Source: an uncultured Candidatus Saccharibacteria bacterium
GTDB taxonomy: Bacteria; Patescibacteriota; Minisyncoccia; Phycocordibacterales; WO2-35-19
Direction: 5' to 3'
DNA: 64,000 bases
NCBI GenBank assembly: GCA_964589445.1
Contig: CAZPQX010000002.1
Coordinates: forward strand, 91,882 to 155,881
The position numbers and the translations under genes are program-made. Below the pieces are notes generated by a model. It ran no database searches and was not told the origin of the DNA. It saw nothing but the letters and a program-made list of their open reading frames with translations. This document shows positions 5,157 to 61,586 of this stretch, one piece after another; the first letter of the stretch is position 1; each line of letters begins with the position of its first letter.

Positions 5157-5582
5157 CTAGCAGTCGCCACCTTCAAATTGCTCTAGGGTGCACCAAGGGC
5201 CGCCGCTTGGATCTACTTGCCACACTCCGCCAACTTTCCTTGCATGAATGATTATGTTTCCAAGGTCGCCTTCTTCACCTTTATTTACTATCATCTCCAC
5301 TGCATCATTTTTCCTTTTTTCTATCGATATATCGTATGAATTGGGCACACCTTTTGGAAGTTTGTATTCGTTCATAAAGGTGTCGACGGAATTTTTGAGC
5401 TGTTCTTTTTCGATATCTGAAAGTTCTATATTACTTGTCAGGGTTATCTCATTTTTTATCTGGGCTTTTTGTTCAACTGTAAGGTTGTCTCTGTCACTAG
5501 TATTTTTGTTTGTGTATGTGTAGGTAAATACCCCTGAGGCTAGTATCAGAATAATAAGTATAATTTTTTTATTCTTGGTCAT
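5157..5582 (-). CDS. hypothetical secreted/lipoprotein-like protein
   Basis: N-terminal hydrophobic signal-anchor KKIILIILILASGVF; 141 aa. Confidence 0.4.
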   Translation of the reverse strand: MTKNKKIILIILILASGVFTYTYTNKNTSDRDNLTVEQKAQIKNEITLTSNIELSDIEKEQLKNSVDTFMNEYKLPKGVPNSYDISIEKRKNDAVEMIVNKGEEGDLGNIIIHARKVGGVWQVDPSGGPWCTLEQFEGGDC

Positions 5583-5976
5583 TTATTTTATAAATACTAT
5601 TACAGGAATTAGAGAGATCTTGAATTTTTAATAGCAACTCTTTTAAGTTGCCGCCTTCTGCCATGGTCTGTGCATCGTCTAATTCTTCCCATACAAGCCT
5701 CGCGTAATTATCATCTCCTGAGCGTAACATATAAGTATAGGCAAGCTCTACTCGGAATATCACTTTTTCTTCTAGGGTTGTGCCTGGCCTGTCTGTCTCT
5801 TCGTATCTTTCATTTTTCCATTTAAAAAGTTTTTCTGGACTAAAATCATCCGGTATTTTGCTTAAGTCTAAACCAAATTCTGTAAAAAAAACATCAATCC
5901 TTCTTTTTAAATTTTCAAAGCTTTCTGCAATAGTAACTCTATTTTCTCGTTCAATTTTTTTATTTAAATCTTCCAT
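5569..5976 (-). CDS. hypothetical acidic protein; first gene downstream of sRNA candidate 1 and its terminator
   Basis: 135-aa ORF, overlaps next gene by 14 nt (operon-like). Confidence 0.4.
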   Translation of the reverse strand: MEDLNKKIERENRVTIAESFENLKRRIDVFFTEFGLDLSKIPDDFSPEKLFKWKNERYEETDRPGTTLEEKVIFRVELAYTYMLRSGDDNYARLVWEELDDAQTMAEGGNLKELLLKIQDLSNSCNSIYKINDQE

Positions 5977-6001
5977 GTAATTAAGTATATCAGAATTTTT
6001 T

Positions 6002-6101
6002 TATGAAAATGAAAAGGTCCGAGAGTTCATCACTCTCGGACCTAGGGTGGTAACCGCGGCTCGCTTTTGGAGCGGGCCATGACAGAATTACCATCCCAAC
6101 A
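6002..6101 (-). ncRNA. candidate structured sRNA-1 (~95 nt), identity unknown
   Basis: GC-rich island immediately downstream of a minus-strand TTGACA-N16-TATACT promoter; 5' GGGAUGGUAA pairs with UUACCACCC; ends in hairpin GGUCCGAGAGU...ACUCUCGGACC + UUUUCAUUUU. Confidence 0.4.
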
Positions 6102-6107
6102 TAATTA

Positions 6108-6135
6108 AGTATAGCATATATAAAAAACTTGTCAA
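6108..6135 (-). promoter_or_regulatory. sigma70-type promoter TTGACA-N16-TATACT (copy 1)
   Basis: Plus-strand tgtcaa 6130-6135 and agtata 6108-6113; 16-nt spacer. Confidence 0.55.
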
Positions 6136-6178
6136 GTATGAAAATGAATTATAAATGTATTTAAAAGGGGAGGGTTTT

Positions 6179-6442
6179 TATGAAAATGAAAAGGCTCGGA
6201 GACATCTTACGATAATCTTCCGAGCCAAACTTTAGAAGAGTGATACTTCCTCCCTACGTCTACTGCGAGTCGGCTAAATAGTGCCGCCACCAGACCCCGC
6301 ACATCAGCAACCTGCTGACCGGGGGAGTTAAACATCAGAGCTGTCTCCAGTAGTGGACCGCCTACGCGTATGGGGCGATGAAGAACTAAACGAGCCCGTG
6401 ACGCGCTGCGGCCGACCATAAAACTGGACTACCACTCTTCTG
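6179..6442 (-). ncRNA. candidate structured sRNA-2 (~260 nt), identity unknown (6S/SRP/other not resolvable by eye)
   Basis: Downstream of perfect-consensus TTGACA-N16-TATAAT; 5' CCAGAAGAGUG pairs with 3' CACUCUUCU (closing helix); ends in hairpin GGCUCGGAAG...CUCCGAGCC + UUUUCAUUUU. Confidence 0.45.
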
Positions 6443-6448
6443 GTATCA

Positions 6449-6476
6449 ATTATAGCATATATAAAAAACTTGTCAA
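6449..6476 (-). promoter_or_regulatory. sigma70-type promoter TTGACA-N16-TATAAT (copy 2, perfect consensus hexamers)
   Basis: Plus-strand tgtcaa 6471-6476, attata 6449-6454; surrounding ~80 bp duplicated from 6095-6180. Confidence 0.6.
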
Positions 6477-6522
6477 GTATGAAAATGAATTATAAATGTA
6501 TTTAAAAGGGGAGGGTTTTTAT

Positions 6523-6554
6523 GTATACTTTTGAAAAAGCGGGTATGGTTTAGT
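6523..6554 (+). repeat. partial duplicate of the tRNA-Gly promoter -10 region plus first 16 nt of tRNA-Gly
   Basis: gtatacttttgaaaaagcgggtatggtttagt identical to 7488-7519. Confidence 0.7.
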
Positions 6555-6637
6555 CTGTCTATTGATTAAAATATTTGGTTTGTTATAATTGTATTCATAT
6601 TTGGGGTTACCCACGTTCCCTCGAAAGAGGGAGAATA

Positions 6638-7027
6638 TCATGAATAAAGACGGAGAAATCCGTCCTTTATTTTTATAATATCTTTTTCGTCTAGAGTTCC
6701 CATTTTTTCATACATTCTCAAAAAGCTTAGAACTCTAACTTGTGCTAAGTTGGCGACAATGTCCTTTCCTTGAAAATTTATTTCTGTATACCAAGTTCCA
6801 GTTTTTCCTTTTGTTGAAAGAGGTATCGCGAGGAAACCATTTACACTTAATTTTTTATAAATATAAACTGGTCTAGAAAATGGCTTTCCTTTACCATTGA
6901 CCTCTATTCCTACATTTTCTCCGATAGCACACCACCAAACTTCTCCTTCTTTAAATAAAGGTGGCTTGTGCTCGTTTTTATGAATCTTTTCTTTTAGTCC
7001 AATCCATTCTAAAAATCTTTTTATCAT
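6638..7027 (-). CDS. MazF/PemK-family endoribonuclease-like toxin, no adjacent protein antitoxin ORF
   Basis: 129 aa; KEGEVWWCAIGENVGIEVNGKGKPFSRPVYIYKK...FLAIPLSTKGK...VANLAQVRVLS parallels MazF/EndoA motifs (GDVY..D...G.E..G.RP..V..., P.TS..K, Q.R..D). Confidence 0.55.
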   Translation of the reverse strand: MIKRFLEWIGLKEKIHKNEHKPPLFKEGEVWWCAIGENVGIEVNGKGKPFSRPVYIYKKLSVNGFLAIPLSTKGKTGTWYTEINFQGKDIVANLAQVRVLSFLRMYEKMGTLDEKDIIKIKDGFLRLYS

Positions 7028-7111
7028 TTTTAAAAATTTGTATCTTTTAAAATTAGTTGCATGAGATATTTAAATTATATCAATAAATATGATGATAATG
7101 GTGTTTGTTTA

Positions 7112-7365
7112 GGTAATAAGAAAGACCGCGTCCTATTGGGCGCGGTCTGTGAGGATTCTTGGAGCGTTCCAGTGTTTTCGCTCCTCAGGTCTTTGACCAA
7201 ATGATCCTCTTTGAAAAAGAGTCTGTTTCCAGGTCTCTCTGGAGTAGTGGTTACTGGAAGGAACACACTCCCGACGGGGTTTTCACCTGTCGTAAACTCA
7301 CGAGATAGTCACAACAGACCAATCCATACCACCTCCTTGCGGAGCAGGTAAGCTCGTGATTGTCT
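7112..7365 (-). ncRNA. candidate structured sRNA-3 (~255 nt) transcribed toward the MazF-like gene
   Basis: Starts ~7 nt downstream of TTGACA-N16-TATACT; contains CUCC-GCAA-GGAG (GNRA hairpin) and CACGAG...CUCGUG pairing; ends in AGACCGCG...CGCGGUCU + UUUCUUAUU. Confidence 0.45.
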
Positions 7366-7371
7366 GTTTAT

Positions 7372-7399
7372 AGTATAGCAGAACTATGGAATTTGTCAA
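7372..7399 (-). promoter_or_regulatory. sigma70-type promoter TTGACA-N16-TATACT (copy 3)
   Basis: Plus-strand tgtcaa 7394-7399, agtata 7372-7377. Confidence 0.55.
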
Positions 7400-7503
7400 T
7401 AGCAAAGTTAATTTTGTCTATGAGTATGGCAAAATATGTTTAAAAATAAGGGTTTTTTAGGAATTGGTAAAAATGAAGTACTTTGGTGTATACTTTTGAA
7501 AAA

Positions 7504-7574
7504 GCGGGTATGGTTTAGTGGTAGAATGCGGCCTTCCCAAGGCTGAGACGGGAGTTCGATTCTCCCTACCCGCA
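7504..7574 (+). tRNA. tRNA-Gly (anticodon CCC)
   Basis: Acceptor GCGGGTA/TACCCGC, anticodon stem CGGCC/GGCTG with loop TTCCCAA, T arm GGGAG-TTCGATT-CTCCC, discriminator A; TATACT -10-like element 10 nt upstream. Confidence 0.8.
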
Positions 7575-7583
7575 CACTAAATT

Positions 7584-7868
7584 TTGTTTAAAATTATGTT
7601 CTATGTATATGTTCTCGGTAGTTTGAAAGATAAAGATTTATACATAGGTTCTACTAATGATTTAAAAAGACGGGTGATAGAACATAATTCAGGAAAAGTT
7701 TTATCTACTAAAAATAGAGCCCCGTTTAGTCTCCTTTACTACGAAGCTTATACTACTGAGGGTGAAGCTCGAGATAGGGAGGCTAGTTTAAAACTCCGTG
7801 GTCAAGCTAGAGTCGGCTTGCTAAAAAGGATTTCCTTTACTATAAAACTTTTCAAAAACAAAAATTAG
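7584..7868 (+). CDS. GIY-YIG nuclease-superfamily small protein
   Basis: 94 aa; FYVYVLGSLKDKDLYIGSTNDLKRRVIEHN = GIY-YIG motif; followed by hairpin gtgcgggcgtacccgcac. Confidence 0.7.
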   Translation: MFKIMFYVYVLGSLKDKDLYIGSTNDLKRRVIEHNSGKVLSTKNRAPFSLLYYEAYTTEGEARDREASLKLRGQARVGLLKRISFTIKLFKNKN

Positions 7869-8094
7869 TGTGCGGGCGTACCCGCACAATAAGGAACGAA
7901 GTGACTATATTGTGCGAGGTAAGCAAAGTAAACTGCTTTACTTTGCGTGGGAGTGAGAAGCGAAAACTTGGAGCTTCGCAAGACCTTTGATAATTTTTAT
8001 GAGCTTTGCGAAATAAAAATAGAAAAGGTGTACAGCTTCTGTAGGAAGGCGAAAGCCGCAGGCATGTTTTTTGAGCACAAAAAACAGCCGAGGC

Positions 8095-8201
8095 GGGGTC
8101 GCGGAAATTTTGTTTTGACGAAAACAAAATTATCCGTGACCGATTCTCAGTCTTGCTGATTTTGTTACTGGTCCTGTAAGGACCGATTCTTTACCCGCAC
8201 A
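8095..8201 (+). repeat. tRNA-linked conserved hairpin element (GGTCGCGG...CCGTGACC) followed by two partial direct copies of the tRNA-Gly 3' end
   Basis: Homologous to 1573-1612; cgattctc (8141-8148) and gaccgattctttacccgcaca (8181-8201) echo tRNA-Gly 7557-7576. Confidence 0.55.
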
Positions 8202-8298
8202 TTTTCTATAGAGATAGCTTTGTTGACTTATATACCTAAAAGCTGTACAATATATAGTAGAAAAAGGTTTTGATAAACTCTTCTGAAAGGATGGCACC

Positions 8299-8628
8299 AT
8301 GGCAAAACGCTTTGCACGCTTTAGCGCAAAGGAGATGCAGGAGGCTCAAGAGAGTCTAGCGCAAATGAACTTAACCTGTGCCCGCCTCATCGAATCGATT
8401 TTGAATGTCGTGGATAAGGCCGAGGGAACACCTGCCTATAAGGAATCCCTGAAAGCAAACTTTCTCCTTTCTGCTGCAGGCGTCCTTCTTGGTGAGTCAC
8501 GCACTTCTCAAGGACTCGCCGATTCCTTACAGATGGTCGCAGATGATTTGCGAGAGTGCAAGAATCCGGCTGCAGGCGATGTTGAGGCGCTGGCGCACGC
8601 CATGAGAGCTTGGCTAAAACGCCGGTAG
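8299..8628 (+). CDS. hypothetical protein (GC-rich ORFan)
   Basis: 109 aa; GC-rich relative to flanks; followed by hairpin ctcagccgaaaggttgag + T-run at ~8663-8685. Confidence 0.4.
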   Translation: MAKRFARFSAKEMQEAQESLAQMNLTCARLIESILNVVDKAEGTPAYKESLKANFLLSAAGVLLGESRTSQGLADSLQMVADDLRECKNPAAGDVEALAHAMRAWLKRR

Positions 8629-8710: not shown

Positions 8711-10096
8711 CTAAAGTAGTGAAGCAAGCGTCTTTCGTACCAAGCTATTTTCTTGTTTGTCTTCGATGACGAAACCAGCGGCTTCTATTTCTTTGCGAAG
8801 CTCGTCGCTTCTCTGCCAGTTTTTGTTGCTTCTAGCCTCGTCTCTTTCTTTTTGTGAATCCAAAATTTCTTCGGGGATCTCTGTGAAGAGAGACTCTGAA
8901 ATATTTTCTATATTTAAAGCTAAAACTCCATCTATTTTCCTAATTGCATTTTTGGATTTTGCTTCCTGAAGTAGGGCGATGGCTTTGGGGGTGTTGAGGT
9001 CGTCTGCTATCGCTTCTTCAAATTTTGATATTACCTCACTGTCGCTCTCGCTCGTCTCGGGCAAATCCCTGAAAGAGGCGACTATCTTTTCGAACGCCAC
9101 TTGTGAAGAAGATACCCCCTCCCATGTGAAGTTGGCTGGGGTTTTGTAGTGAGAGGTGAGAAGCCAGTATCGGAAAGATAGGGGGTGGATTTTTCTTTTT
9201 ATTATATCTTCGAGATAAACCACTACGCCTTCTGATTTTGAGATTTTGGCGTCGTCTATCTTGAGGTGATTTCTATGTAGCCAAAATCGTGAGAAAGGGG
9301 AAACACCGGTGTAGCTTTCGGACTGAGCGATTTCGTTGTTGTGATGCACTGGGATGTGCTCGATGCCACCTGTGTGAATGTCTATCTGCTCGCCCAAAAT
9401 ATCGATAATCATGGCAGAGCACTCGATGTGCCAGCCAGGGAAGCCAAGGCCCCAAGGGGACTGCCAGCCTACTTTGCCGTCTTTTTTCCAGAGGATAAAG
9501 TCGGTAGGATTTTTCTTGTTTGTACTTGTCACTCTTTTGCCTTCCTCTAAACCTTCTAGGTTTATGTTTCCAAGCTTGCCGTAATTTGGGAATTTGGCTG
9601 TGTCGAAATATACACCGTTCGAACCGACGTAAGCAAAGCCTTTTTCGAGAAGAGACTCAATCATTTTTATTTGTGAATCTACGTAGTCGGAGGCGTATGG
9701 GAAGATGGTGTCCTCAGTCTTTATGTTTAAGAGGGAGAGACTTGATAGGAAAACCGAGGCGTACTTTTCGGCAAGTTTCCTCATGTTGGCGAGGGTGAGC
9801 TCTAGGCCTTCTCTCTTTAGGCCTTTGGTCATACGGTCTTCGCCTTCGTCAGCTTTGCCCTCGTTGTCGCCTGAGAGGTGGCCGAAGTCTGTGAAGTTGA
9901 TGACTTGCTTTACCAAGAGCCCATCGTGTTCGAGAGTGCGCCTCAATATATCAGTAAAGACATACATGGAAAGATTGCCGATGTGTTGGGGGCCGTAGAG
10001 AGTGGGGCCACAGTGATACATTTTTACTACACCTTTTTCTTGAGGCTCAAAAGTTTCTTTTTTATTGGTCAGTGTATTTGTGAGTTTGATTTGCAT
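8711..10096 (-). CDS. cysS: cysteine--tRNA ligase
   Basis: Class I aaRS motifs HIGN and KISKSEG; CGPTLYGPQHIGN near N-terminus. Confidence 0.9.
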   Translation of the reverse strand: MQIKLTNTLTNKKETFEPQEKGVVKMYHCGPTLYGPQHIGNLSMYVFTDILRRTLEHDGLLVKQVINFTDFGHLSGDNEGKADEGEDRMTKGLKREGLELTLANMRKLAEKYASVFLSSLSLLNIKTEDTIFPYASDYVDSQIKMIESLLEKGFAYVGSNGVYFDTAKFPNYGKLGNINLEGLEEGKRVTSTNKKNPTDFILWKKDGKVGWQSPWGLGFPGWHIECSAMIIDILGEQIDIHTGGIEHIPVHHNNEIAQSESYTGVSPFSRFWLHRNHLKIDDAKISKSEGVVVYLEDIIKRKIHPLSFRYWLLTSHYKTPANFTWEGVSSSQVAFEKIVASFRDLPETSESDSEVISKFEEAIADDLNTPKAIALLQEAKSKNAIRKIDGVLALNIENISESLFTEIPEEILDSQKERDEARSNKNWQRSDELRKEIEAAGFVIEDKQENSLVRKTLASLL

Positions 10097-59862: not shown

Positions 59863-60204
59863 TTGAATTCTAGAGGTTCTATGCAAGAAAAATTGGTTGG
59901 TATCGGTTCGACGGTAACCGTCGAAGTCTATCTTGGAGAGGTAAAGATTGAGGGTTTCGGTCAGTCTCGGAGGAGATATCTCTCCTATGCTTTACATAAC
60001 AGCCAAACCTTGGTTATCACAAAAGACGCTGCAGATCTAGGTGGTAAAGGTTTACACCCCGACTCCTTTGCCGGGAGAGCTCTTTTGGGTTGTAGGGTTG
60101 CTGATGAGGTAGAGGTAAATATTGGGGGTCTCCCAGTCGAGCAGGTTAAGGTGGGTCAAGCAACTGGTAACCACCTCAAGTATAAAGTTCTCTCAATCAG
60201 CTAA
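59863..60204 (+). CDS. GreA/GreB C-terminal (FKBP-like) domain-only protein, Rnk-like (GC-rich ORFan)
   Basis: ...DAADLGGKGLHPDSFAGRALLGCRVADEVEVNIGGLPVEQVKV matches GreA C-domain pattern S..SP.G.ALLGK.VGDEVEV. Confidence 0.45.
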   Translation: MNSRGSMQEKLVGIGSTVTVEVYLGEVKIEGFGQSRRRYLSYALHNSQTLVITKDAADLGGKGLHPDSFAGRALLGCRVADEVEVNIGGLPVEQVKVGQATGNHLKYKVLSIS

Positions 60205-60218
60205 TCAGTAGTCAAGTA

Positions 60219-60247
60219 AAAGCGGAGCCATAGGCTCCGCTAGTTTT
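60219..60247 (+). terminator. rho-independent terminator
   Basis: agcggagcc-atag-gctccgct + tttttt. Confidence 0.6.
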
Positions 60248-60249
60248 TT

Positions 60250-60469
60250 ATAAACAGAAAGACCGCTCGGGATGGCACCCGTGGCGGTCTGGTTTTTTAT
60301 TTTTTGTCTTACCGCAACAATCTAGCGATTATTGCGGTGTTGCCTGGCGGCGCCTTTATTCCAATAAATGACGCCATCTACAATCCAGTAACGCGGCATA
60401 GGACACACCTCCATTTAAAGCCCTAAAATAAGGCACTAAATGGAAGTGTCCATACGCTTACTATCTAAC
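60250..60469 (-). ncRNA. candidate structured sRNA-4 (~220 nt); 3' hairpin homologous to that of sRNA-3
   Basis: Downstream of TTGACA-N16-TATACT (copy 4); long helix AUGGACACUUCCAUUUA/UAAAUGGAGGUGUGUCC; ends in CAGACCGC...GCGGUCUUUCU. Confidence 0.3.
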
Positions 60470-60476
60470 TACCTAT

Positions 60477-60504
60477 AGTATAGCATATATACAAACTTTG
60501 TCAA
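60477..60504 (-). promoter_or_regulatory. sigma70-type promoter TTGACA-N16-TATACT (copy 4)
   Basis: Plus-strand tgtcaa 60499-60504, agtata 60477-60482; flanking tatagcatatata motif shared with copies 1-2. Confidence 0.5.
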
Positions 60505-60545
60505 GTATTAAAATAGAGTTTTTTGAGGTGTAGTTTTGGGTCTTT

Positions 60546-61586
60546 TTACCTCCCTGCCCGGAGGAGTGCCACTACAAAGAGCGACTCTGCCCAGCCGAGT
60601 GGGGTGTTTTCGTTGGGTTTATTGGAGTCAGAGTAATAAAGCTCGGGGATTTGGCCGTTGTACGCTATTGCCTTAGATTTTTCGAGATACTCATGAGCTT
60701 TTTCTATGTTCCCCATTTCTCCATAAATGATCGAAGCCCAAGGGAAGCCAAAACACCATTCAGCTTCTTCGCTATAGCCATCATCATTTTTGTTGTAGTA
60801 TCGGTCGTTTTTGTATCTTATTATTCCGCGGTCCCTTTCTAAGTGGTACTCGAGGTGCCTCAAAATTTCTGTTTTCATTCTTTCTGAAACCATATCAAAT
60901 GGATAAATGAGCGAGAGTAGTGCTAGGTCGGTAAATTTGGTCTTAGACTCTCTGGGCAAAAGAGCGAGCAAGGCGTCTTCGCCATTTTTGATTAGATATT
61001 CCGGCACAGTCACATACTCCAAATTTTTCATTTTTTTGAGTCCGGCGACGCAAGCTCCGATAGACGAAGCGTGTACTTCTTCATATTCTTCCCAGACTCC
61101 GTTGTCACTGTCGTGCCAATACTCTATCGACTCAAGGTAATTTACAAGAAGCTGCAGCATGTACTTTTCTTCTTCTGTCTCTATTATCCTGATTCCCTTT
61201 TCTTCCAAATCCCCTATCTTGAAAAGCACCGCACCCACAGCGTCGTTTTGCTTGTTGCCCCACTCCTCCCAAAATTCCTCGAAGCTTTCTGGGTTGTAGC
61301 GGGCATGGATATATTGAAATGTAGAAGTGGGCTTGTTCTTGCTTGCCCAATCTATTTTGTCTTTGTGTTTTATAAATACAGCAAGCAGAGCCTTCCAAAC
61401 CTTCTTCACCGTCTCGACTTCCCCCACTTCTTCAAAAGCGAGGCAAGTGTAAAAGTTGTCCCTGATCCAAGCTTTGTTGTAGCCAGTCGAGACATCACTA
61501 CGGGAAGCCATAAAGAGGCCCGAAGCCGAGCCAAGCGATCTTATATTATCTAGGTGTCTCTCGACTAAATCATTTTCGATAATCAT
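60546..61586 (-). CDS. glycoside hydrolase family 15-like (glucoamylase-related) protein
   Basis: GLFMASRSDVSTGYNKAWIRDNFY resembles GH15 N-terminal catalytic motif; (alpha/alpha)6-like repeat pattern. Confidence 0.6.
   Translation of the reverse strand: MIIENDLVERHLDNIRSLGSASGLFMASRSDVSTGYNKAWIRDNFYTCLAFEEVGEVETVKKVWKALLAVFIKHKDKIDWASKNKPTSTFQYIHARYNPESFEEFWEEWGNKQNDAVGAVLFKIGDLEEKGIRIIETEEEKYMLQLLVNYLESIEYWHDSDNGVWEEYEEVHASSIGACVAGLKKMKNLEYVTVPEYLIKNGEDALLALLPRESKTKFTDLALLSLIYPFDMVSERMKTEILRHLEYHLERDRGIIRYKNDRYYNKNDDGYSEEAEWCFGFPWASIIYGEMGNIEKAHEYLEKSKAIAYNGQIPELYYSDSNKPNENTPLGWAESLFVVALLRAGR

Follow-up and report, generated by a model that had tools for sequence, protein, structure and literature searches.

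How can two neighbouring genes for small RNAs (sRNAs) share nearly identical promoters and identical terminator tails, and yet carry transcribed bodies that are unrelated to each other? This question is raised by a locus in a 64-kb stretch of contig CAZPQX010000002.1 from an uncultured patescibacterium (64,000 nucleotides, referred to here as the window), where two successive promoter-RNA-terminator units are encountered on the minus strand across positions 6523..5977. The first unit encodes sRNA-2 and the second encodes sRNA-1. Downstream of sRNA-1 lies ORF135, an open reading frame (ORF; 5569-5976) without a Pfam family. Descriptions of regulatory or structural RNAs from Patescibacteria are few, and a search of the literature on structured RNAs from the Candidate Phyla Radiation (CPR) and Patescibacteria found nothing relevant.

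The reading favoured here, with a probability of roughly 0.6, is that the locus contains two stand-alone non-coding RNA genes, a conserved structured one (sRNA-2) and a young one (sRNA-1), which share an expression scaffold, and that recombination can exchange the bodies inside it. For each gene, the promoter would be of the sigma-70 type, near consensus and with an extended -10 element, and transcription would end at an intrinsic terminator. What is most unusual is the combination of a shared expression scaffold with strain-specific bodies. The predicted features are collected in Table 1.

Table 1. Predicted features of the sRNA-1/sRNA-2 locus, in window coordinates.
Feature	Position	Strand	Description
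Promoter block copy 1 (sRNA-2)	6445..6523	-	79-nt repeat; promoter TTGACA-N16-TATAAT at 6476..6449, match 12/12 with TG
Elements of copy 1	6489..6478; 6476..6471; hexamer end 6449	-	Motif TTCATTTTCATA; -35 TTGACA; extended -10 TGCTATAAT
sRNA-2 predicted transcript	6190..6442	-	Core of ~211 nt (6442..6232), terminator hairpin 6226..6193, U-tail
P1 5' strand, GAAGAGUGGUA	6430..6440	-	Pairs with 6235-6245; within inverted repeat 6430-6441/6234-6245
P2 (UCCAG/CUGGA) and hairpin D1	6346..6428	-	P2 encloses the long D1 hairpin
Domain 2	6250..6340	-	Closed by covarying helix D2a (CUCU/AGGG); interior variable
P1 3' strand, UAUCACUCUUC	6235..6245	-	Invariant GGAAG just before
Terminator tail copy 1	6175..6194	-	Exact 20-nt repeat; left border of the sRNA-1 unit
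Promoter block copy 2 (sRNA-1)	6104..6182	-	-35 at 6135..6130; -10 TATACT hexamer 6113..6108; promoter TTGACA-N16-TATACT at 6135..6108, match 11/12 with TG
sRNA-1 predicted transcript	6010..6101	-	53-nt bulged hairpin 6097..6045, terminator hairpin 6043..6015, U-tail
Terminator tail copy 2	5998..6017	-	Right border of the 177-bp sRNA-1 unit; repeat spacing 177
Motif TTCATTTTCATA, all copies	6137-6148, 6478-6489; 6002-6013, 6179-6190	-	First two just 5' of the -35 boxes; last two inside the tails
ORF135 extended -10, TGATATACT	5984..5992	-	Ends 7 nt before ATG
Duplicate of tRNA-Gly -10 box and first 16 nt of the tRNA	6522..6554	+	Exact 33-nt repeat with 7487-7519

Conservation and fold of sRNA-2

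Related loci, all of them on short metagenomic contigs, were located by searching for homologues of two ORFs, ORF135 and the one next to it (5157-5582), and were compared by BLAST and inspection. Three of these contigs encode a homologue of sRNA-2 (L083 1421-1660, L082 943-1226 and L003 1-231), and identity among the four copies is about 72-80% by BLAST. The window copy folds better than dinucleotide shuffles (z = -4.7), also when the terminator is removed (z = -3.3). Its terminator hairpin is present in the minimum free energy fold and was missed by a simple terminator scan.

The long helix that was proposed in the preliminary description to join the 5' and 3' ends of sRNA-2 was recovered as P1. 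In the four copies, its consensus (GAAGAGUGrGUA / UACUCACUCUUC) is almost invariant, with 11 of the 12 pairs showing no variation. The window copy has a compensated 1-bp deletion, and the helix stays continuous because both strands have lost one nucleotide. Inside P1, three helices are stacked in the D1 hairpin, which also has an internal loop of 4x4 (UCAC/CAUA); its apical loop, UCGUUUAGUUCUUCAUC, is U-rich, 17 nt long, and retains a GUU..GUU.U.C pattern across the copies. The stems of D1 vary in sequence yet retain pairing: in helices 2-5, which make up the P2 and D1 region, nine pairs are altered on both sides in the four-sequence alignment. The interior of domain 2 differs in size between lineages, being larger in L082 and smaller in L083. 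Three strings, GUAGUCC, GAGAC, and GGAAGUA, are invariant in all four copies.

These changes were counted, with the alignment left unchanged, in a structural alignment of the four copies that was built by hand and covers P1, P2, the three D1 helices, and D2a. Standard pairs occupy 95.9% of the 145 cells (41 pairs), compared with 86.4% in shuffles and 34-54% with slid partners. Double-sided changes are found in 12 pairs, compared with 5.3±1.5 in shuffles (none of 500 reaches 12) and one to three in the slid-partner controls. RNAalifold found four further double compensatory changes in domain 2 between the window and L003. A covariance model of P2 and D1 (R1) scored all four copies, with E-values from 2e-26 to 8.5e-11.

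Compensatory substitutions together with an invariant junction across lineages argue for selection on the RNA fold. On this comparative evidence, sRNA-2 is a real conserved structured RNA without an Rfam family, and its predicted fold is a three-way junction of P1, P2 with D1, and D2. It is a candidate for a new RNA family with a narrow known distribution, namely four closely related Paceibacteria contigs.

Searches further afield gave no additional members. The R1 model detected no paralogue beyond the four known copies in the window and 15 related loci, and in the more distant loci with homologues of ORF141 (L085-L095) both the synteny and sRNA-2 are absent. The pattern GGGCTCGTTTAGTT-N60-90-GCGGGGTC had no match in GTDB genomes and four chance matches in soil metagenomes (JGI), while a pattern spanning the P1 3' strand and the terminator had none in GTDB genomes or IMG/VR. 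A 14-mer of sRNA-2 alone had 72 matches in IMG/VR, all of them attributable to chance. A 70-aa ORF inside sRNA-2 lacks its start codon in L082 and L083 and has no Pfam match. The window copy contains a hammerhead-like CUGAUG, but this motif is not kept in L003, and the candidate was rejected. A target search for complementarity to the P1 strand elsewhere in the window found no excess over chance.

Is sRNA-2 a known housekeeping RNA in disguise? With Rfam 15 at the gathering score, two tRNAs were the only matches in the whole window. At E<=10 with relaxed filters, the region 5800-6700 had no match to 6S RNA, signal recognition particle (SRP) RNA, RNase P RNA, transfer-messenger RNA (tmRNA), or a riboswitch, but only plus-strand noise in A+T-rich spacers. 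Searches of 7040-8300, 60100-60560, and the contigs L002-L005 at E-value thresholds gave only tRNAs and sub-threshold noise. ARAGORN found two tRNAs in the window, none in L002 or L003, and no tmRNA. The earlier view of two independent units holds, and Rfam and ARAGORN support its conclusion that neither is a known housekeeping RNA. The individual candidates were rejected one by one. For RNase P RNA, neither RNaseP_bact_a nor RNaseP_bact_b matches, the core is only about 211 nt long, and the AGUCC string pairs locally as part of P2. For tmRNA, neither ARAGORN nor Rfam gives a match. Bacterial SRP RNA (4.5S) had already been discounted for sRNA-1, and rightly so: its apical loop is CCAAA, the AGCA/GGAA loops and the GNRA-type domain IV signature are absent, and there is no SRP match at E<=10.

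The preliminary description had also found sRNA-2 reminiscent of 6S or SRP-type RNAs, and this resemblance is not supported by the comparison of the four copies: the conserved fold is a branched three-way junction and not a rod with a central bubble. It is accordingly very unlikely that sRNA-2 is a highly divergent housekeeping RNA unrecognised by the Rfam models; the most plausible case would be a regulator of the 6S type, which binds RNA polymerase. In favour of this reading, sequence conservation among 6S RNAs is poor. Like 6S (RF00013), sRNA-2 is about 200 nt long, with a core within the 6S size range, has a consensus and presumably very strong promoter, and has a long helix joining its ends. 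Unlike 6S, it carries a covariation-supported junction with a 75-nt side hairpin, has no model match even at the relaxed threshold, and has one domain that varies freely in size among close relatives; moreover, one sister strain (L002, discussed below) has other RNAs at this locus.

A different role can be proposed. The complexity of the junction, the unpaired strands that never vary, and the tolerance of its peripheral domain to change suggest that sRNA-2 may be a trans-acting, protein-binding RNA that works as a ribonucleoprotein. Its recognition surfaces would be the invariant junction strands, the internal loop, and the U-rich loop, with domain 2 being peripheral. In being stand-alone, multi-helix, G+C-rich, supported by covariation, and without an assigned biochemical role, sRNA-2 is comparable to raiA, OLE, ROOL, and GOLLD. 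It differs from these RNAs in that their Rfam models give no match, in its smaller size (about 211 nt), and in its confinement to four related Paceibacteria contigs. As a concrete new-family candidate supported by covariation, it has an architecture clear enough for probing, pull-down, and structure solution.

The shared expression scaffold

The two promoters lie in a direct repeat of 79 nt that a repeat search of the window found to be 97% identical between its copies, in agreement with the near-identical sigma70 promoter blocks described earlier. A 30-nt core of this block has a chance expectation of 0.00 and occurs at 6110 and 6451, and with three mismatches at 60479. The search for further promoter blocks that had been proposed was run on the 64-kb window; it added this third copy and no others. 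The core, CTTGACAAGTTTTTTATATATGCTATA, is unchanged 5' of the sRNA-2 copies in L082 and L083. The core can also be given as CTTGACAAGNNNNNNNNNNNNTGNTATA, and the tail as YUUUCNNUUUNAUAAAAA.

3' of each promoter, a G+C-rich body is followed by a terminator hairpin, after which comes a tail of 20 nt that both units share (CCUUUUCAUUUUCAUAAAAA, minus strand). This tail has two exact copies in the window against a chance expectation of 0.06. The hairpins and the common tail had also been described correctly, as had the sizes of the two RNAs (about 95 and 260 nt), which are correct to a few bases if transcription starts, as predicted, near 6101 and 6442. All four copies of the 12-nt motif TTCATTTTCATA in the window belong to this locus. 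The motif could be an UP-element or the site of a regulator, or it could merely be part of a duplicated junction.

The third copy of the core (60479-60508) stands 5' of another potential RNA of about 220 nt, located at 60472..60250 on the minus strand. This RNA folds well (z = -6.9) and matches no Rfam model; its tail, CUUUCUGUUUAUAAAAAA, is similar to those of the two sRNAs.

Tandem duplication is a known source of sibling sRNAs, for example, OmrA/OmrB of E. coli and PrrF1/PrrF2 of Pseudomonas. As in those pairs, sRNA-1 and sRNA-2 are adjacent stand-alone genes on the same strand with near-identical promoters and similar terminators, and local duplication is involved. However, the known siblings share a body or seed, whereas the bodies of sRNA-1 and sRNA-2 are unrelated (no BLAST match) and very different in size.

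The origin of sRNA-1

The self-complementarity noted earlier for both bodies is reflected in the stability of both transcripts. For sRNA-1, the whole transcript gives z = -7.3, and the terminator scan found a perfect 12-bp hairpin; the body alone gives z = -2.9, and three of 200 shuffles are equally good. The terminator stem differs from that of sRNA-2 by two swapped base pairs (GGCUCG...CGAGCC versus GGUCCG...CGGACC), and it looks like a diverged copy of the latter. The unit, comprising promoter block, hairpin, terminator, and tail, is exactly 177 bp long and is bordered by the 20-nt tail repeat.

No homologue of sRNA-1 was found in any fetched locus, and its 21-mer has no match in IMG/VR. 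L003 represents the state without sRNA-1: here the sRNA-2 terminator directly abuts the promoter of ORF135, which is 63% identical to the window protein. sRNA-1 is, therefore, best read as a young, lineage-specific unit that arose from a duplicated tail-promoter junction around a new body. Its function is doubtful, since only the intact expression signals and a moderately stable fold speak for one; sRNA-1 may be a minor regulator, or it may have no function.

L083 presents a different arrangement at the same position. The order in this contig is tRNA-Gly, a spacer element, a gene for a GNAT acetyltransferase, the promoter core, sRNA-2, an unrelated hairpin without a promoter, and ORF135. The hairpin (1665-1770, CACACACAUUAGUGA...UCAGUGAUGUGUGU) occupies the place of sRNA-1 between the sRNA-2 terminator and the ORF135 promoter, a spot that appears to be an insertion hot spot.

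These observations bear on the suggestion that the units are recombination debris, or small mobile, G+C-rich elements with terminal inverted repeats, similar to miniature inverted-repeat transposable elements (MITEs), that inserted between a promoter and a terminator. This explanation applies mainly to sRNA-1, whose lack of homologues, flanking 20-nt direct repeat, and modest body z-score it would account for, as it would for a locus that is a hot spot for small insertions beside tRNA-Gly and for the promoterless hairpin of L083. For the locus as a whole it is unlikely. Firstly, sRNA-2 has compensatory substitutions and an invariant junction across lineages. Secondly, unlike MITEs, neither body has a second copy in the 64-kb window or in any of the related loci that were retrieved. 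Thirdly, the consensus promoters and terminators are intact in both units. Confined to sRNA-1, this explanation is plausible.

Proposed exchange of RNA bodies between strains

The same scaffold encloses other RNAs in L002, a sister strain in which ORF135 is 94% identical and the flanking DNA 93% identical to the window. Here the order is tRNA-Gly, promoter block, RNA A, tail, promoter block, RNA B, tail, GNAT, and ORF135. Both RNAs lie within L002 160-1128. RNA A is about 400 nt long (z = -2.8); RNA B, at about 470 nt (z = -5.9), has a closing helix between its 5' and 3' ends (GCGGAC/GUCCGU). Neither RNA is similar to sRNA-1 or sRNA-2, and neither belongs to an Rfam family. The earlier proposal that one scaffold has been reused around different RNAs is, thus, borne out twice, by the two bodies of the window, which BLAST cannot align, and by the other RNAs housed in the sister strain.

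Where the two strains part can be read from the pairwise alignment of the window and L002: homology spans the promoter blocks up to the -10 hexamer, ends just after it, and returns inside the U-tail. Hence it is exactly the transcribed bodies, including the terminator stems, that differ between the strains. Within a genome the two tails match exactly, but they differ between the window (UUUUCAUUUUCAUAAAAA) and L002 (UUUCUAUUUCAUAAAAA); this indicates concerted evolution, with the tails homogenised in each genome.

A mechanism can be suggested for this pattern. The promoter core and the tail would form a scaffold common to several unrelated RNAs, namely sRNA-1, sRNA-2, the one at 60250-60472, and A and B of L002. 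As repeated sequences, core and tail could serve as homology arms, and homologous recombination within the scaffold could move or replace whole transcribed bodies. This would account for the different RNAs in a strain whose flanks are 93% identical. That a single promoter and terminator recur around unrelated bodies, with the transcribed segment swapped between strains, suggests a route for the shuffling of RNA genes in reduced genomes.

A stronger version of this idea, which is put forward tentatively and with a low probability, is that the core and tail act as a landing pad at which whole structured-RNA genes are swapped, with the borders of the exchange at the transcript ends, and that the locus is one of modular RNA cassettes near tRNA-Gly. 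Each strain would then have its own repertoire of abundant, elaborate RNAs. Unrelated bodies, 90-470 nt long and all outside Rfam, would number at least five, and sRNA-2 would be the only one to be broadly retained. Such a cassette system might be tied to an episymbiotic lifestyle or to conflict with phages. Integron cassette arrays offer a parallel, since they also combine repeat-bordered modules and strain-variable content with conserved flanks. The differences are that no integrase or attC-like sites were found here, that each unit has its own promoter and terminator and an RNA cargo, and that the repeats are the expression signals themselves.

Taken together, the window and the L002 contig contain six strongly promoted, well-folded RNAs outside Rfam (sRNA-1, sRNA-2, 7115-7368, 60250-60472, A, and B). 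If these RNAs are abundant, they would be useful markers of, and handles on, an uncultivated lineage.

Stand-alone transcripts or leaders

In each of its four carriers (the window, L003, L082, and L083), sRNA-2 is located directly 5' of ORF135 and has the same orientation. It could be a leader that acts in cis on this gene, as a riboswitch, a protein-binding attenuator, or a module for transcriptional interference. In such a model, P1 would favour the terminator, and pairing of UCUUC in the P1 3' strand with GAAGA in the 5' arm of the terminator would permit read-through. The sequences of P1 and of the terminator hairpin are indeed unusually invariant, and the P1 5' strand (CAGAAGAG) resembles the terminator 5' arm (CGGAAGAU; CAGAAGAU in L083), which makes an alternative pairing of 5-6 bp possible. 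However, this antiterminator candidate (UCUUC/GAAGA) is short and weak, and although its sequence is conserved it shows no covariation.

The way in which genes are started in this genome also has to be considered. A Shine-Dalgarno (SD)-like 4-mer precedes two of 41 genes in the window, compared with about five at random positions, while a -10 box (at least 5/6) ends 5-9 nt before the start codon in 13 of the 41, compared with 0.74 expected. Given the near absence of SD sequences and the enrichment of -10 boxes just before starts, leaderless mRNAs appear to be the rule in this Paceibacteria genome (its cysteinyl-tRNA synthetase, ORF 8711-10096, is 74% identical to proteins of Candidatus Paceibacterota, which places the window in the Paceibacteria/Parcubacteria part of the Patescibacteria). 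The mRNA of ORF135 is likewise predicted to be leaderless: the arrangement of its -10 box (TGATATACT-N6-7-ATG) is kept in the three relatives read at this junction (L003, L082, and L083).

A riboswitch or attenuator leader shares a transcript with the translation signals of its gene, and on sequence-based prediction ORF135 does not fit this type, since it appears to have its own -10 box and no SD sequence. A transcript reading through into ORF135 would bury the ATG without a ribosome-binding site. Moreover, in the window a full sRNA-1 unit stands between sRNA-2 and ORF135, and L002 retains ORF135 without sRNA-2 upstream. It is, therefore, unlikely that sRNA-2 is a leader of ORF135. With a -10 box of its own for ORF135 in an SD-poor, leaderless genome, sRNA-1 and sRNA-2 are probably stand-alone transcripts.

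Several points weigh against two stand-alone genes with exchangeable bodies. The conservation of sRNA-2 is drawn from four sequences, all from close relatives and one of them truncated at its 5' end, and the pair counts are inflated because the alignment was fitted by hand to the structure. Comparative support for sRNA-1 is nil. The transcript ends are predicted from consensus elements only. With regard to recombination, RNAs A and B are absent from this 64-kb window. Finally, the synteny with ORF135 in all four carriers could reflect a cis relationship and not mere relatedness, and the structure model of ORF135 (AlphaFold; predicted local distance difference test score, pLDDT, 79.5) is an all-helical bundle that is uninformative as a clue to a partner. 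A Foldseek search of the PDB with this model gave no match below E = 0.39.

Neighbouring genes and possible insertions

In the window, sRNA-2 is separated from tRNA-Gly by an additional segment. The intact tRNA-Gly directly abuts the promoter block in L002 and L082, and the duplicated tRNA-Gly 5' end at 6522..6554 marks the putative ancestral junction between tRNA-Gly and promoter block 1. The two copies of this 33-nt repeat bracket 932 bp that contain a PemK/MazF-like ORF (6638-7027), a remnant of the 5' end of a GNAT gene (7040-7082), and a third non-coding RNA, nc3. This segment looks as though it had been inserted, or had arisen by recombination, at the tRNA-Gly 5' end.

The presence of a PemK-like ORF without an adjoining protein antitoxin gene raises the question of whether the locus is part of an anti-phage or toxin-antitoxin island, with the RNAs serving as type III-like antitoxins or defence RNAs for the PemK/MazF-like toxin or for GNAT. 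The region is variable between strains and adjoins a tRNA gene, and every contig has structured RNAs with terminators 5' of a GNAT or PemK gene. Nevertheless, this explanation can be given very little credence. Neither body contains tandem repeats of the ToxI type, the same GNAT gene is preceded by different RNAs in different strains, and sRNA-2 is present in L082 and L083 without PemK. Searches of the neighbouring proteins with PADLOC and NCBIfam gave nothing informative, and PADLOC found no defence system among them.

A better candidate for an antitoxin of PemK lies on the plus strand at 6562-6675, where a promoter (TTGATT-N16-TATAAT with TG, 10/12) and a terminator (6649-6664) delimit a candidate RNA of about 80 nt (6596-6675, z = -4.5). 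Because this RNA runs antisense to the 3' end of the PemK-like ORF, beside which there is no gene for a protein antitoxin, it is a possible RNA antitoxin.

The RNA nc3 (7115-7399, minus strand, about 255 nt) has its own promoter (TTGACA-N16-TGCTATACT at 7399..7372) and its own terminator, with the RNA predicted at 7115-7368 (z = -3.4). It has no Rfam match and is 94% conserved in L082 (221-473), where the order is tRNA-Gly, nc3, GNAT acetyltransferase, promoter core, sRNA-2, and ORF135. Thus, nc3 is located 5' of the GNAT gene in L082 and 5' of the PemK-like ORF in the window.

On the other side of tRNA-Gly, its 3' end (ACCCGCAC) is repeated three times, at 7568, 7880, and 8193. An ORF for a GIY-YIG nuclease (7584-7868) lies between the first two copies, and the segment 7880-8193 also adjoins tRNA-Gly in L083 (730-998). 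These repeats look like att-like scars of small integrated cassettes.

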